From: Enterobacteria phage HK225
Sequence record: NC_019717.1
Direction: 5' to 3' (one strand)
DNA length: 45,366 nucleotides
Both the position numbers and the translations under genes were made by a program. Below, one piece after another: positions 1 through 7,459 of this stretch. The notes beneath the pieces were generated by a model. That model saw only the letters and a program-made list of their open reading frames with translations. It ran no database searches and was not told the DNA's origin. Numbering within the stretch: position 1 is the stretch's first letter; each line of letters begins with the position of its first letter.

Positions 1-546
1 ATGGAGGTTAACAAAAAACGCTTATCCGAAATTTTCGGGGTGAGCGTCCGAACGATTCAGAACTGGCAGGAACAAGGTATGCCGGTTGCCCGCGGTGGTG
101 GCAAGGGTAATGAGGTTCTCTTTGAATCTGCTGCCGCAATCGAATGGTACAGTGCGCGCGATGCAGCCATAGAAAATGAAAAGTTGCGGAAGGAAGTTGA
201 AGATCTCCGCATTGCTTCTGAGTCCGATCTTCAACCTGGCACGATTGAATATGAGCGACACCGACTTACGCGAGCTCAGGCTGACGCTCAGGAATTAAAA
301 AATGCAAAAGAGTCCGCTGAAGTGGTGGAGACCGCATTCTGCACGTTCGTGCTGTCGCGGGTAGCCGGAGAAATTGCCAGCATTCTCGATGGAATACCTC
401 TGTCGGTTCAGCGGCGCTTCCCGGAGCTGGAGAACCGACATATTGATTTCCTCAAGAAGGACATCATTAAGGCCATGAACAAAGCAGCTGCGCTGGATGA
501 AATGATACCGGGGTTGCTGAGTGAATATATCGAACAGTCAGGTTAA
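1..546 (+). CDS. nu1: terminase small subunit (lambda Nu1-like)
   Basis: 181-aa ORF; N-terminus MEVNKKRLSEIFGVSVRTIQNWQEQGMP closely matches lambda Nu1 from memory; overlaps the large terminase start as in lambda. Confidence 0.9.
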   Translation: MEVNKKRLSEIFGVSVRTIQNWQEQGMPVARGGGKGNEVLFESAAAIEWYSARDAAIENEKLRKEVEDLRIASESDLQPGTIEYERHRLTRAQADAQELKNAKESAEVVETAFCTFVLSRVAGEIASILDGIPLSVQRRFPELENRHIDFLKKDIIKAMNKAAALDEMIPGLLSEYIEQSG

Positions 547-2443
547 GGGGCTGCAGCACTCTGCGCGGGCGGGGCTACGTTCGCTTTACCGGCCAGAACC
601 GCAAACAGCGGTTGAATGGGCAGATGAGAATTACTATCTCCCGAAAGAGTCTGCCTACCAGGAAGGGCGCTGGGAAACACTGCCATTTCAGCGTGCAATT
701 ATGAATGCGATGGGCAATGACTATATCCGCGAAGTGAATGTCGTTAAATCTGCTCGTGTCGGCTACTCAAAAATGTTGCTCGGCGTTTACGCATATTTCA
801 TCCAGCATAAACAGCGTAACTCCCTAATATGGTTGCCAACCGACGGTGACGCTGAAAACTTCATGAAGTCTCATGTCGAACCGACCATTCGTGATATTCC
901 GACGCTGTTGGCGCTTGCTCCTTGGTACGGCAAAAAACACCGGGACAATACGCTTAGCATGAAGCGTTTCTCAAATGGTCGTGGTTTCTGGTGCCTGGGC
1001 GGTAAGGCTGCAAAAAACTACCGTGAAAAATCCGTTGATGTGGCTGGCTACGACGAGCTTGCCGCTTTCGATGATGACATCGAGAAAGAAGGTTCTCCCA
1101 CCTTTCTGGGAGATAAGCGTATTGAGGGTTCTGTATGGCCAAAATCCATTCGCGGCTCTACACCGAAAGTCAAAGGTACGTGCCAGATAGAAAGGGCTGC
1201 TAAGGAGTCAGAACATTTTCTTCGGTTCCATGTTCCATGCCCACACTGCGGGGAAGAGCAGTATCTGAAATTTGGCGATGAAGAGACACCATTTGGCTTT
1301 AAATGGTCTCCGGGAGAACCTTCCAGCGTTTACTACCTCTGTGAACACAATGCCTGTGTGATTAAACAACAAGAGCTGGACTTCCTTGAGGCCAGGTATA
1401 TTTGTGATGAAACAGGTATCTGGACGCGAGACGGCCTTCACTGGTTTGCTTCATCCGGTACTGAAATTGAACCTCCTGACAGCGTTACATTCCACATCTG
1501 GACCGCTTACAGCCCGTTCACAACTTGGGTGCAGATCGTCAAGGACTGGATAAAAACAAAAGGTGATACGGGTAAGCGCAAAACCTTCGTTAACACGACC
1601 TTGGGCGAAACGTGGGAACCGAAAATAGGCGAACGACCCGATGCTGAAGTTTTAGCGGAGCGCAAAGAGCACTTTGAAGCGTCTGTGCCGGAGCGAGTGG
1701 CATATCTAACAGCGGGTATTGACTCCCAGCTTGACCGTTACGAAATGCGTGTATGGGGATGGGGACCGGGAGAGGAAAGCTGGCTTATCGACAAAATCAT
1801 CGTTATGGGTCGTCATGATGATGAGTCGACTCTCGCTCGAGTGGATGAGGCGATCAACAGGACATATAAGCGCCAGAACGGTCTCGAAATGGTTATATCC
1901 CGCACTTGCTGGGATATTGGCGGCATTGATCCCACCATCGTCTACAACCGCTCAAAAAAACATGGTCTGTTTCGTGTGATCCCTATAAAGGGTGCGTCGG
2001 TTTATGGAAAGCCGGTGGCGAACATGCCACGCAAGCGTAACAAGAGTGGCGTTTACCTCACTGAGGTAGGAACAGACACCGCAAAAGAGCAGATTTATAA
2101 CCGTTTCACGCTGGTGGCGCAAAGAGACGAGCCGCTGGCGGGAGCGGTTCATTTCCCGAATAACCCAGAAATCTACGATCTAACCGAGGCCCAACAACTA
2201 ACTGCTGAAGAGCAGGTGGAAAAATGGGTAGACGGAAAGAAAAAGATCGTCTGGGACAGCAAAAAACGACGAAATGAGGCGCTCGATTGCTTTGTTTATG
2301 CACTGGCGGCGCTTCGTATCAGCATATCCCGCTGGCAGCTAAATCTTGATTCACTTCTGGCCAGCCTGCTGGAGGAAGAAGGCAGCCGTAACAATAACAA
2401 GACCCTGGCGGATTACGCGCGGGCATTATCTGGAGAGGAATAA
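521..2443 (+). CDS. A: terminase large subunit (lambda gpA-like)
   Basis: 640-aa ORF starting at GTG in the same context as lambda A; long stretches recalled as lambda gpA ([42 protein letters not shown]). Confidence 0.95.
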
Positions 2444-2649
2444 TGGCAACACAGACTGAACTGGATGCCGCGCGCGCTGCGTTACATGACCTGATGATGG
2501 GAAAGCGCGTGGCGACGGTACAGAAAGACGGTCGAAGAGTGGAATTTACAGCCACATCAGTCAGCGATCTCAAAAAATATATTGCTGACCTTGAATCTCA
2601 GGTTGGTACCACATCACGACGCCGGGGGCCAGCAGGGTTTTACGTATGA
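2443..2649 (+). CDS. W: head-tail joining protein W
   Basis: 68-aa ORF, same length and position as lambda gpW; ATG overlaps the A stop. Confidence 0.85.
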
Positions 2650-4238
2650 AAATACCATCTTTAGTGGGACCTGACGGGAAAACATCCCTTCGGGAATACG
2701 CGGGATATCATGGTGGTGGTGGCGGGTTTGGTGGGCAGCTGCGGGGCTGGAATCCGCCGAGTGAAAGTGCAGATGCCGCACTCCTTCCCAACTATTCTCG
2801 TGGAAATGCCCGCGCTGACGATCTGGTGCGAAATAATGGCTATGCAGCAAACGCCGTGCAGCTCCACCAGGACCACATCGTCGGGTCATTTTTCAGACTC
2901 AGTTATCGACCGAGCTGGCGCTATCTTGGCATCAATGAGGAGGATTCACGCGCATTTTCTCGGGATGTGGAAGCCGCCTGGAATGAGTATGCCGAAGATG
3001 ACTTCTGCGGGATTGATGCCGAACGCAAGCGAACGTTTACGATGATGATTCGTGAAGGTGTAGCAATGCATGCGTTTAACGGTGAATTATGCATGCAGGC
3101 GACATGGGACAGCGATTCAACGCGTCTTTTCCGTACTCAGTTCAAAATGGTTAGTCCGAAGCGCGTCAGTAATCCAAGCAACATCGGTGATACCCGGAAC
3201 TGTCGCGCCGGGGTAAAAATCAATAATAGTGGTGCTGCGCTGGGATATTACGTCAGCGATGACGGTTATCCTGGTTGGATGGCGCAGAACTGGACCTACA
3301 TACCTCGCGAGCTCCCCGGAGGGCGCCCCTCTTTTATCCATGTCTTCGAACCGATAGAGGACGGACAGACCCGTGGAGCCAATGCGTTTTACAGCGTTAT
3401 GGAGCAGATGAAAATGCTCGATACCCTGCAAAACACCCAGCTCCAGAGTGCGATAGTGAAGGCCATGTATGCTGCCACCATCGAGAGTGAGCTGGATACG
3501 CAGACGGCGATGGATTTCATTCTCGGCGCGGATAATAAAGAGCAGCAGAGCAAACTGACGGGCTGGCTCGGTGAAATGGCGTCCTATTACTCAGCTGCGC
3601 CGGTTCGCCTGGGTGGGGCAAGGGTTCCACACCTGTTGCCGGGTGATTCTCTCAACCTTCAGTCGGCGCAGGATACCGATAACGGCTACTCGACTTTTGA
3701 ACAGTCACTGCTGCGCTATATTGCCGCTGGGCTGGGTGTATCGTATGAGCAGCTTTCGCGAAATTATTCTCAGATGAGTTACTCGACTGCGCGCGCAAGC
3801 GCTAACGAGTCATGGGCGTACTTCATGGGCCGTCGCAAGTTTGTGGCATCCCGACAGGCCTGTCAGATGTTTCTTTGCTGGCTGGAAGAGGCAATTGTCC
3901 GCCGCGTGGTCACACTTCCTTCAAAAGCCAGATTCAGCTTTCAGGAAGCGAGAACAGCCTGGGGAAATGCCAACTGGATCGGCTCAGGCCGCATGGCTAT
4001 TGACGGGCTGAAAGAGGTACAGGAAGCCGTCATGCTCATCGAGGCTGGTCTCAGTACGTATGAGAAAGAATGCGCCAAACGCGGTGATGATTATCAGGAG
4101 ATTTTTGCCCAGCAGGTCCGGGAAACAATGGAGCGTCGTGCTGCGGGTCTGAAACCACCGGCATGGGCCGCTGCCGCTTTTGAGGCTGGACTGAAAAAAT
4201 CAAACGAGGAGGAGCAAGATGGCGCACGAGCTGCGTAA
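2646..4238 (+). CDS. B: portal protein (lambda gpB-like)
   Basis: 530-aa ORF in portal position, translationally coupled to W; lambda B-like by recollection. Confidence 0.9.
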
Positions 4239-5562
4239 TCTTCCGCATATCGCCAGTATGGCCTTTAATGAGCCGCTGATGCTTGAACCCGCCTACGCGC
4301 GGGTTTTCTTTTGTGCCTTAGCTGGTCAGCTGGGCATCACCCGGCTGACAGATACCGTCTCTGGCATCACGCTTGACGCCGGACAAATAGCCGAACCGCT
4401 GGCGCTGTTTGGTGAAGATGATGACATGGATACCCGACCATCGCGAAGCTATCAGGTGGCAAATGGCATCGCGGTCTTGCCGGTTTCCGGCACTCTGGTG
4501 AGTAAAACCCGTGCGCTGCAGCCTTATTCCGGGATGACGGGTTACAACGGGATCATCGCTCGCCTGCAGCAGGCCATCAGTGACCCCGGCGTCGACGGCA
4601 TTCTACTGGACATGGATACGCCGGGTGGCATGGTGTCCGGGGCGTTTGACTGCGCCGACATTATTGCCCGTATGCGCGATATCAAACCCATCTGGGCGCT
4701 GGCCAATGACATGAACTGCAGTGCAGGTCAGCTTATTGCCAGTTCGGCATCGCGACGGCTGGTCACACAAACGGCCAGAACCGGCTCCATTGGGGTCATG
4801 ATGGCGCACAGTAACTATGGCGCTGCGCTCAAAACTAACGGCGTTGAGGTCACGCTGATTTACAGCGGCGATCGCAAGGTCGACGGCAACCCTTACGAAA
4901 AGCTTCCGAAAGATGTGCGTGCTGATTTCCAGACGCGTATCGATGCCACTCGTCAGATGTTTGCCGAAAAGGTTTCCGCTTATACCGGCATGTCTGTTCA
5001 GGACGTGCTGGACACCGAAGCGGCAGTATTCTCCGGCCAGGAATCTTTGGATAACGGGCTGGCGGATGAACTTGTTAACAATACCGATGCGCTCGGCGTG
5101 ATGCGCGAAGCACTCGACAGACGCAAAAAAACAACCCTTGGAGGAACTATGCCATCACCTTCTGCATCAGCTGTGACCACTAAGCCAGTTGACCAGGCAG
5201 CAACTCAGACAACTGCATCAGCTGAACAGGCCACTACCGTTGACACGACAATTGCTTCCGTAGCAGCCCCTGTAGATGTCAGTGCGCAGGTTACTGCAGC
5301 AGTAGCTGCAGAGAATAGTCGCATCATGGGCATCCTGAACTGCGACGAGGCTAAAGGGCGTGAGTCACAGGCGCGAGCACTGGCCGAAACGCCGGGTATG
5401 ACGGTAGAGAGCGCACAGCGCATTCTGGCTGCTGCACCGCAAAGTGCCCAGACGCGTACCGATACGGCGCTGGATCGTTTGATGGAAACAGCACCCGGTG
5501 CACTCCAAGCAGGTAGCGCATCTTCTGATGCCGCTGACGATTTGTTAAACACCCCCGTTTAA
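4219..5562 (+). CDS. C: prohead protease / scaffold (lambda gpC-like, S49 peptidase) with Ala/Thr/Gln-rich C-terminal scaffold-like tail
   Basis: 447-aa ORF; ClpP/S49-like core in the N-terminal two thirds; C-terminal 130 aa low-complexity, as with the nested Nu3 scaffold of lambda. Confidence 0.85.
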   Translation: MAHELRNLPHIASMAFNEPLMLEPAYARVFFCALAGQLGITRLTDTVSGITLDAGQIAEPLALFGEDDDMDTRPSRSYQVANGIAVLPVSGTLVSKTRALQPYSGMTGYNGIIARLQQAISDPGVDGILLDMDTPGGMVSGAFDCADIIARMRDIKPIWALANDMNCSAGQLIASSASRRLVTQTARTGSIGVMMAHSNYGAALKTNGVEVTLIYSGDRKVDGNPYEKLPKDVRADFQTRIDATRQMFAEKVSAYTGMSVQDVLDTEAAVFSGQESLDNGLADELVNNTDALGVMREALDRRKKTTLGGTMPSPSASAVTTKPVDQAATQTTASAEQATTVDTTIASVAAPVDVSAQVTAAVAAENSRIMGILNCDEAKGRESQARALAETPGMTVESAQRILAAAPQSAQTRTDTALDRLMETAPGALQAGSASSDAADDLLNTPV

Positions 5563-5571
5563 GAGGCTATC

Positions 5572-5904
5572 ATGGAAATTACTGAAGTTTTCACACATAA
5601 CCAGCCGCTCGGTAACAGCGACCCGGCGCACACTGCGTATGGTCTTGGCGAACTGACAGCTTCCACTCCAGCCATGACGCCGCTCATGCTGGATGCCACT
5701 TCTGGCAAGCTGGCCGTCTGGGATGGTGCTCATGCTGGCGCGGCAATGGGCATCCTGGCTGTAACCGCAGACCAGAACAGCGCGGAACTGGCATTTTACA
5801 AATCTGGCTCTTTCCGTATTGAAGATGTCCTCTGGCCATCTGCCGTCACCGACGACAACATTAAACGTAACGCGTTCGCCGGTACTGCAATCAGCATCGT
5901 TTAA
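5572..5904 (+). CDS. D: head decoration protein (lambda gpD-like)
   Basis: 110-aa ORF, same length as lambda D; motifs [12 protein letters not shown] and FAGTAISIV; good SD. Confidence 0.9.
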
Positions 5905-5935
5905 TCCGCATTTCTACAACCATCATCATTCATAA

Positions 5936-5958
5936 AAGCCGCCTGCGCGGCTTTTTTT
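5936..5958 (+). terminator. intrinsic terminator-like hairpin between D and E
   Basis: GCCGC-ctgc-GCGGC stem followed by a run of seven T. Confidence 0.5.
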
Positions 5959-5971
5959 ACGGGAAATATCT

Positions 5972-6997
5972 ATGTCCGTTTACACCACTGCCCAGCTGCT
6001 GGCGGTCAATGAGAAGAAATTCAAATTCGATCCGCTTTTCCTGCGTATCTTTTTCCGCGAAACCTATCCCTTCAGTACAGAGAAGGTTTACCTGTCGCAA
6101 ATTCCTGGCCTGGTCAATATGGCGCTTTACGTCTCGCCGATTGTCTCCGGCAAAGTGATCCGCTCCCGTGGCGGCAGCACGTCTGAATTCACGCCGGGTT
6201 ATGTGAAGCCGAAACACGAAGTTAACCCACTGATGACTCTCCGCCGCCTGCCGGATGAGGATCCGCAGAATCTCGCTGACCCGGTCTATCGCCGTCGCCG
6301 CATCATCCTTCAGAACATGAAGGATGAAGAGCTGGCGATTGCTCAGGTCGAAGAGAAACAGGCTGTTTCGGCGGTGCTCAGCGGTAAATACACCATGACC
6401 GGGGAAGCGTTCGAGCCTGTTGAAGTCGATATGGGTCGCAGCGCTGGTAACAACATTGTCCAGGCAGGTGCGGCTGCATGGTCAACCCGCGACAAAGAAA
6501 CGTATGACCCGACCGATGACATTGAAGCGTACGCGCTTAATGCCAGCGGTGTGATCAACATCATTGTGTTCGATCCGAAGGGCTGGGCGCTGTTCCGTTC
6601 CTTCAAGTCTGTTGAGAAGAAACTGGACACCCGTCGGGGTTCTAACTCAGAGCTGGAAACTGCCGTGAAAGACCTGGGTATGGCTGTTTCATACAAGGGT
6701 ATGTATGGCGATGTGGCCATCGTGGTGTACTCCGGCCAGTACGTCGAAAATGATGTCAAAAAGAACTATCTGCCGGATCTGACGATGGTTCTGGGTAATA
6801 CACAGGCCCGTGGCCTCCGTACCTATGGCTGCATTCTTGATGCTGATGCCCAGCGCGAAGGTATCAATGCCTCGACACGCTACCCGAAAAACTGGGTGCA
6901 GTCGGGGGATCCGGCGCGCGAATTCACCATGATTCAGTCAGCTCCGCTGATGCTGCTGCCAGACCCTGACGCATTCGTCTCCGTCAAACTGGCATAA
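5972..6997 (+). CDS. E: major capsid protein (lambda gpE-like)
   Basis: 341-aa ORF, same length as lambda E; N-terminus MSVYTTAQLLAVNEKKFKFDPLFLRIFF recalled as lambda E. Confidence 0.95.
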   Translation: MSVYTTAQLLAVNEKKFKFDPLFLRIFFRETYPFSTEKVYLSQIPGLVNMALYVSPIVSGKVIRSRGGSTSEFTPGYVKPKHEVNPLMTLRRLPDEDPQNLADPVYRRRRIILQNMKDEELAIAQVEEKQAVSAVLSGKYTMTGEAFEPVEVDMGRSAGNNIVQAGAAAWSTRDKETYDPTDDIEAYALNASGVINIIVFDPKGWALFRSFKSVEKKLDTRRGSNSELETAVKDLGMAVSYKGMYGDVAIVVYSGQYVENDVKKNYLPDLTMVLGNTQARGLRTYGCILDADAQREGINASTRYPKNWVQSGDPAREFTMIQSAPLMLLPDPDAFVSVKLA

Positions 6998-7007
6998 CTT
7001 CCCCCAG

Positions 7008-7025
7008 TGGCCCTGTCGGGCCACC
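7008..7025 (+). terminator. hairpin downstream of the capsid gene (possible partial terminator or RNA stabiliser)
   Basis: perfect inverted repeat GTGGCCC-tgtc-GGGCCAC followed by CTTTCT. Confidence 0.35.
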
Positions 7026-7042
7026 TTTCTGGAGTATTTCCC

Positions 7043-7459
7043 ATGACAGAAAAAGAAAAGCTGGTCGCCCGCCTGAATGAACTTGGGACCCAGCTTAACC
7101 GCGAGGTCAGTTCCAGCGGCACCATTCAGGAACTAACGATGCGTATTGCTGAGCTTGAAGAGGAGCTGGATGGAGACGCCATCTCGGTTGACGGTAAAAA
7201 CGGCGTGCAGAATGCTTCCGACAGCACCGACAGCACCGACAGCACCGACAGCAATGTTGCTAACGTGGCAAAAGTAAAAACGGAATCGGCCACAACGGGT
7301 GACCTGGTATCAGTAGAAACGCTGGCCACCCTGCATATTGACGCTCTGCATGCCACGCGTAACGAACCGGTATCCATCGTAGAGCCTGGTGTGATTATCC
7401 GCGTATCTGAACAGGATGCCGACGACTTGATCGCAAAGGGGCTGGCTTTCGAAGTCTGA
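7043..7459 (+). CDS. FI: DNA packaging protein FI
   Basis: ORF track gives 7007 (alternative start); ATG at 7043 has GGAG 9 nt upstream and gives 138 aa; LNELGTQLNREV and HIDALHATRNEPV resemble lambda FI; contains a (DST)n tandem repeat. Confidence 0.8.
   Translation: MTEKEKLVARLNELGTQLNREVSSSGTIQELTMRIAELEEELDGDAISVDGKNGVQNASDSTDSTDSTDSNVANVAKVKTESATTGDLVSVETLATLHIDALHATRNEPVSIVEPGVIIRVSEQDADDLIAKGLAFEV
7219..7253 (+). repeat. 9-bp tandem repeat CGACAGCAC x ~3.9 inside FI, encoding (DST)n
   Basis: direct reading: ccgacagcaccgacagcaccgacagcaccgacagc. Confidence 0.9.

Follow-up and report, generated by a model that had tools for sequence, protein, structure and literature searches.

An internal in-frame start in the prohead protease gene of Enterobacteria phage HK225 very probably gives a Nu3-like scaffolding protein

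Introduction

The stretch of DNA analyzed in this work comprises 45,366 nucleotides (nt) from Enterobacteria phage HK225 (NC_019717.1) and is referred to throughout as the window. As judged from its list of open reading frames (ORFs) and from Pfam matches, the window opens with a lambda-type head module, within which lies a 447-amino-acid (aa) gpC-like prohead protease ORF. The subject of this report is the last third of that ORF, where an in-frame ATG at position 5149 is, on the strength of its translation signals and their conservation, very probably a functional internal initiation site giving a scaffold similar to lambda Nu3.

The overlap of C and Nu3 in phage lambda has been a textbook example of a nested gene since 1980, when Shaw and Murialdo reportedly described in Nature that the two genes overlap in frame; the scaffold literature on this pair is also said to include work by Ray and Murialdo from 1975 and by Medina et al. 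from 2010 and 2011. Phage Mu carries a gene I protease with a nested scaffold, Z, translated from an in-frame internal start. In phage P2, gpO is a single protease-scaffold product that is trimmed by autoproteolysis without a second initiation. No sequence homology to the Mu I/Z or P2 gpO proteins was found in this analysis.

Results

The protease ORF and its C-terminal tail

The features of the locus are collected in Table 1. The long ORF matched Pfam PF01343 over aa 152-298 (E 4e-37, 128 bits vs a cut-off of 24.9) and TIGR00706 over aa 84-297, and the SppA crystal structures 3rst and 4kwb aligned to aa 82-297 (E 2e-17). At the nucleotide level the ORF and phi80 gene 5 are 98% identical, with lower values for the protease gene of mEp237 (97%) and for N15 gene 5 (93%), and the protein is 75% identical to lambda gpC. 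By homology, the product of 4219-5562 is a lambda gpC-type S49 prohead protease. The portal, C/Nu3, D and E genes follow one another in the lambda-type order, of which the decoration gene at 5572-5904 is the marker.

Profile searches with Pfam and NCBIfam returned no match in the last 137 aa of the ORF (5149-5559). An initial annotation of the window had described roughly the last 130 aa as rich in Ala, Thr and Gln and unlike a protease, a description that proved accurate: aa 311-447 contain 22.6% Ala, 12.4% Thr, 9.5% Ser and 6.6% Gln, in comparison with 11.6% Ala and 7.1% Thr in aa 1-310. The first part of this tail, aa 311-355, which in the long protein forms the linker between protease and scaffold core, is of low complexity (Ala 22%, Thr 20%, Ser 13%, Val 13%, Pro 9%), has the highest amino-acid entropy in the gene and carries indels between lineages. 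The remainder, aa 356-447, is a conserved Ala-rich segment that is predicted to be helical and has DDLLNTPV as its C-terminal end.

In an alignment with lambda C, the tail corresponds to aa 309-439 and shares the invariant core AAVAAENSRIMGILNC...DLLNTPV; the motif AAENxRIMGILNCxEAKGRE was found family-wide and persists in homologues as little as 35% identical. PHROG 8399 ("head scaffolding protein", 131 positions) matched aa 8-137 of the nested protein (E 3.4e-62), and PHROG 8940 ("capsid assembly protein", 201 positions) matched aa 241-447 of the long ORF (E 7e-46). The terminal DDLLNTPV is unchanged across the window, phi80, N15 and lambda and is not retained in distant homologues; D131, L132, N134, T135, P136 and V137 are invariant in the homologue alignment of the nested protein. 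This peptide is a candidate site that could conceivably contact the coat or portal protein.

When the 137-aa protein was modeled with AlphaFold2, residues 1-43 were unstructured and helices were predicted at residues 44-79 and 86-114. Confidence of the model was low (predicted TM-score 0.25; predicted local distance difference test (pLDDT) score 58 on average, below 50 for residues 1-39 and up to 88 in the first helix). The predicted disordered N-terminus and two long helices fit the title of Medina et al. 2011, in which gpNu3 is called intrinsically disordered, and passages of the literature in which phage scaffolds are described as largely helical.

Table 1. Features of the HK225 head module and of the putative nested scaffold gene (positions in the window)
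Feature	Position	Strand	Details
Small terminase	1-546		
Large terminase	521-2443		
W	2443-2649		
Portal	2646-4238		Pfam PF05136
gpC-like prohead protease-scaffold fusion ORF	4219-5562	+	447 aa, 46.9 kDa
S49 (SppA-like) serine protease domain	4462-5118	+	about aa 82-300
A-rich, weakly structured leader (GCAAAAAAACAACCCTT)	5122-5139	+	just upstream of the internal Shine-Dalgarno sequence
Putative internal Shine-Dalgarno sequence GGAGG	5140-5144	+	in the Gly308-Gly309 codons GGA GGA, 4 nt before the ATG
Internal in-frame ATG	5149-5151	+	Met311 of the long ORF, Met1 of the putative nested scaffold
Putative nested scaffold ORF (Nu3-like)	5149-5562	+	137 aa, 13.7 kDa, isoelectric point 4.2; frame and stop shared with the protease
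Variable Ala/Thr/Ser/Val/Pro-rich N-terminal segment of the scaffold	5149-5283	+	aa 311-355, predicted disordered
Conserved core, two predicted long alpha-helices	5278-5490	+	nested residues 44-79 and 86-114
Conserved C-terminal peptide DDLLNTPV	5536-5559	+	alignment
Head decoration gene, gpD-like	5572-5904	+	Pfam PF02924, E 2.6e-20
Major capsid protein (E)	5972-6997		Pfam PF03864

Translation signals at position 5149

The initial annotation had proposed that a scaffold gene might be nested at 5100-5562 and that an internal Shine-Dalgarno (SD) sequence with an in-frame ATG should be looked for. Both were found, and the proposed range encloses them together with the entire nested ORF. The sequence at the site reads ...CGC AAA AAA ACA ACC CTT GGA GGA ACT ATG CCA... 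Duplex energy with the anti-SD sequence was -9.3 kcal/mol at 5149, the best value among the 28 internal in-frame ATG, GTG and TTG codons; the next-best internal codon reached -7.0 kcal/mol, and the true start at 4219 reached -11.8 kcal/mol.

As a measure of accessibility, the cost of unfolding positions -18 to +10 around a start codon was computed. At 5149 this opening energy was 4.4 kcal/mol, the lowest of the 18 in-frame ATGs (8.6-24.2 kcal/mol for the other 17), and the starts of A, W, B, C, D, E and the FI-like gene all lay above it (6.2-11.8 kcal/mol). No RNA structure stable beyond chance was found in 5100-5200 (z = -0.05). The A-rich leader keeps the site open, and what counts is the absence of structure. 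Gene callers choose the equivalent of ATG 5149 whenever a contig begins inside the protease gene.

Conservation of the site in close relatives

Conservation was assessed in 83 related loci (phi80, N15, lambda and 80 IMG/VR contigs), which reduced to 70 distinct coding sequences. The codon of Met311 is ATG in all 70, Gly308 is encoded by GGA in all 70, and Gly309 by GGA in 68 and GGG in 2, even though GGA is a rare codon in these genes (12.5% of Gly codons). The codons around them, 305-307, 310, 312 and 313, each vary among 4-7 amino acids, a variation spread over five or more sequence lineages. Normalized synonymous diversity fell to 0.16-0.28 around aa 291-325 vs about 0.5 over most of the gene, with few conserved columns contributing, and amino-acid diversity was at its peak around the same residues. 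This is the pattern expected of an initiation site embedded in a fast-evolving linker, and the codon alignment showed selection that apparently acts on the RNA signal, not on the protein, at the internal start.

Conservation of the site in distant homologues

The 137-aa sequence was searched against 1.84 billion representative proteins, yielding 216 matches, many of which sit C-terminally in proteins of about 410-480 aa, from about residue 280-350 on. In nearly all homologues examined, the linker contains a Met that follows the protease domain by about 15-35 residues. The DNA of eight distant homologues (L086-L093; listed identity 34-57% over the matched part of the tail) was then compared; gene order around the gene was the same in all eight. 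The linker residues that precede the Met differ among these proteins (KGEPT, RKENS and EEGEA in three of them), and homologues without Gly-Gly keep a purine-rich SD-like motif 5-9 nt before the ATG. Motifs before the linker ATG are of the AAGGAG, GAGGAAGG or AAAGG type: AAGGAG in L088 and L090, GAGGAAGGTGA in L092, AAAGGTG in L091, AAAGGA in L093, GGAG in L089, ACGGAG in L086 and a weaker CAGGAT in L087. A ninth divergent copy, L084, has CAGGAGtcactATG.

Internal ATGs were ranked by the sum of SD energy and opening energy in ten genes (the window, lambda and the eight distant homologues), each with 7-18 internal ATGs, 1-3 of them in the linker. The top-ranked ATG lay in the linker in 10/10 genes, an agreement with a chance of about 1e-9 by a rough calculation that takes the genes as independent. 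The genes are in fact homologous, but at such divergence their synonymous sites are saturated.

Alternatives to internal initiation at 5149

Under one alternative, a single product would be made, as with P2 gpO: the tail would scaffold only while attached to the protease, and any free scaffold would arise by autoproteolysis. The long ORF alone is annotated in many database records, and a passage of PMC8508860 states that, in P2-type phages, protease and scaffold functions can share one gene product. We nevertheless regard a single product as very improbable for HK225, since it leaves unexplained the invariant rare GGA codons and ATG amid varying neighbors, the highest accessibility in the gene at 5149, and the retention of an SD-like motif and ATG in distant homologues with different linker residues; a gene of the P2 gpO type would be without internal initiation, whereas a strong, conserved internal SD and ATG are present here. 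In lambda there are about ten protease-scaffold copies per head and a procapsid of triangulation number T=7 needs hundreds of scaffold molecules, a number that about ten fusion copies could not supply.

Alternatively, GGAGG could be a protein or elongation signal, namely a Gly-Gly hinge, a protease cleavage site or an SD-like pause separating the folding of the two domains. The Gly-Gly pair is invariant in the protein of the 70 close relatives, and the motif stands exactly at the domain boundary. However, Gly-Gly permits 16 codon pairs, of which just GGA-GGA and GGA-GGG occur, distant homologues without Gly-Gly retain the purine-rich motif at its 5-9 nt spacing, and a pause needs no ATG, yet the ATG is invariant; we give this explanation very little credence.

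The lambda nu3 start

In the lambda records J02459/NC_001416, nu3 is annotated at 5132-5737, starting at Met239 and encoding 201 aa. The codon at lambda 5132 is Ile (ATC, ATA or ATT) in 69/70 genes and ATG in lambda only; its window counterpart is Ile241 at 4939-4941, so that the start codon of the lambda reference gene is absent from the window. Lambda 5132 (2633-2635 in L003) has no SD at normal spacing. Lambda 5342 (2843-2845 in L003), by comparison, is the ATG of AGGAGG-N4-ATG (AGGAGGgcgaATG), corresponds to Met309, opens a product of 131 aa and aligns with Met311 of the window. By this alignment, the homologous lambda site is 5342 and not 5132. Compared with that of the window, the lambda linker is 6 aa shorter and shows no sequence relationship over about 40 aa. 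The analogy with Nu3 drawn in the initial annotation holds for the in-frame nested arrangement and fails for the lambda reference start, 5342 being the homologue.

A nested start farther upstream, equivalent to lambda 5132 and giving about 200 aa that include the end of the protease domain (candidates ATG 4957, Met247, and ATG 4990, Met258), would agree with the 201-aa nu3 of GenBank and RefSeq and with the extent of PHROG 8940 from aa 241, but is improbable in the extreme, since Ile stands in place of lambda Met239 in the window and in 69/70 genes, since lambda 5132 is itself without a normally spaced SD, and since 4957 and 4990 have no SD (+0.3 and -3.2 kcal/mol), are buried in structure (opening energies of 13.8 and 18.4 kcal/mol) and would lie within the S49 fold.

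Annotation of related phages

The gene pairs 5/6 of phi80 and N15 resemble the window in having a 447-aa long ORF, the same internal start codon and a 137-aa nested product. In the phi80 record FN582354, gene 6 is entered at exactly homologous coordinates as "gp6 (capsid assembly;137)" with an "internal in-frame translational start within gene 5"; phi80 differs from the window by few substitutions, for example T72P and T412M. In N15, gene 6 is entered at the homologous position as "head scaffolding protein". Together with the signal strength and accessibility at 5149 and its conservation in 70 genes, these entries bear out the suggestion of the initial annotation that nested initiation is plausible. 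Annotation is inconsistent between records, and in some lambda-like records the entire ORF is named "Nu3".

Metagenome databases also hold many proteins of 131-137 aa that match the nested ORF and could be taken for products of stand-alone scaffold genes; these were rejected as such, having been called on contigs that start partway through the protease gene (for example L084 60-464 and L085 38-451).

Other features of the locus

The first 20 nt of the protease ORF (4219-4238) are also the last 20 nt of the portal gene, and the strong SD of the protease start, GAGGAGG, lies within the portal coding sequence. Synonymous diversity was also low over about the first 35 codons of the protease gene (0.20-0.32 over aa 1-35 vs about 0.5), consistent with this overlap and with translational coupling to the portal gene. 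At the other end, the SD of the decoration gene (AAGAGG, 5561-5566) overlaps the stop codon common to the protease and nested ORFs. An antisense ORF within the nested gene (5205-5552, minus strand, 115 aa) was judged spurious, being open over at least 100 aa in just 18/70 relatives, and can be put down to the Ala-rich, GC-rich sense frame.

Some E. coli database proteins carry C-terminal gpC/Nu3 parts in other contexts. In P0118 an N-terminal piece of the large terminase, and in P0122 an N-terminal piece of the portal protein, is fused directly to the C-terminal gpC/Nu3 part; P0125 (844 aa) was grouped with them by length and match position only. These fusions have the appearance of scars left by in-frame deletions within cryptic lambdoid prophages.

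The gap between D and E contains, at 5936-5961, a GC-rich hairpin with a T-run after it (AAAAGCCGCctgcGCGGCTTTTTTTA). The consensus scan did not flag this hairpin; the mEp237 record annotates a rho-independent terminator at the equivalent position, and in the phi80 record this gap carries a promoter with -35/-10 elements as well as a transcription start. A terminator amid the late head operon would alter the D:E expression ratio. Farther downstream, the FI-like packaging gene (7007/7043-7459) contains perfect tandem copies of a 9-bp unit (CCGACAGCA x 4) at 7218-7253; their translation, (DST)n, is likely a length-variable acidic linker.

The window as a whole looks like a complete lambdoid genome, with portal, C, D and E coordinates identical to those of mEp237. 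Its right half (22000-45366) is alignable over 46% to mEp237 and 33% to phi80 and represents a different mosaic.

Discussion

The comparisons made here demonstrate, at the level of sequence, a two-domain architecture, internal initiation signals and a selective conservation of those signals at the RNA level, and on this basis we consider 5149 very probably the start of a Nu3-like scaffold in HK225. Several points weigh on the other side. The short product of HK225 is one that we infer; the AlphaFold2 model that would represent it is of low confidence (mean pLDDT 58); the SD at the linker ATG is weak in some distant homologues (-4.1 kcal/mol in L087 and -5.3 kcal/mol in L093); the N15 entry was "assigned by similarity with lambda" and is not independent evidence, the nested genes of phi80 and N15 being themselves assigned by similarity; and the mEp237 and RefSeq phi80 records, and likewise JX871397, annotate the long ORF only.

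If 5149 is used, one stretch of late mRNA would be read from two starts in the same frame. Initiation at 4219 would give the 447-aa S49 protease with its C-terminal scaffold domain, and initiation at 5149 would yield a separate scaffolding protein that consists of the last 137 aa and is a homologue of lambda Nu3. If assembly proceeds as in lambda, this protein would greatly outnumber the rare protease fusion and would self-associate through its helical core, so that the major capsid protein polymerizes around the portal. A few full-length protease molecules would co-assemble into the core, because the same domain is carried by both proteins, and would become trapped in the procapsid, where the protease would degrade the scaffold and itself, leaving an empty shell into which DNA can be packaged. 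That the short product is made, is in molar excess, co-assembles with the protease and is degraded is what we infer from the lambda C/Nu3 literature, lambda C/Nu3 being like the window in combining an S49 protease with a C-terminal scaffold in the order B, C/Nu3, D, E.

A similar logic is found outside phages. The herpesvirus genes UL26 and UL26.5 supply an abundant scaffold and a rare protease-scaffold fusion, whose shared C-terminus binds the major capsid protein, and they resemble the window in forming a nested in-frame, 3'-coterminal pair with C-terminally identical proteins. They differ from it in that UL26.5 has its own promoter and mRNA and no internal ribosome binding site, and in that the protease has an assemblin fold, unrelated to S49. 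A separate promoter of the herpesvirus kind was considered for the nested gene of HK225 and is unsupported by a promoter scan of 4900-7100, in which the sole promoter-like match (5546-5573) lay 3' of 5149 and the count was within chance.

The alignments bear in addition on the family as a whole. We think it likely that a start of the 5342 type, giving a scaffold of about 131-137 aa, is ancestral and universal across the S49 protease-scaffold family, including members with tails only about 35% identical, and that 5132 is a lambda-specific annotation artefact. This may already be familiar to specialists, among whom, for lambda, the shorter form of Nu3 is already in use.

The nested scaffold gene as such is correct but already known, and the value of the present analysis lies mainly in annotation quality, with no new biology implied. 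For lambda-type S49 protease genes a simple rule emerges, in which the nested start is the ATG in the variable linker with the best SD and accessibility. If the 5342-type start is indeed ancestral and universal, many phage and prophage annotations would omit the scaffold gene or misplace it. In HK225, a second coding sequence at 5149-5562 (head scaffolding protein, Nu3-like) should be annotated, as otherwise the phage appears to be scaffold-less.

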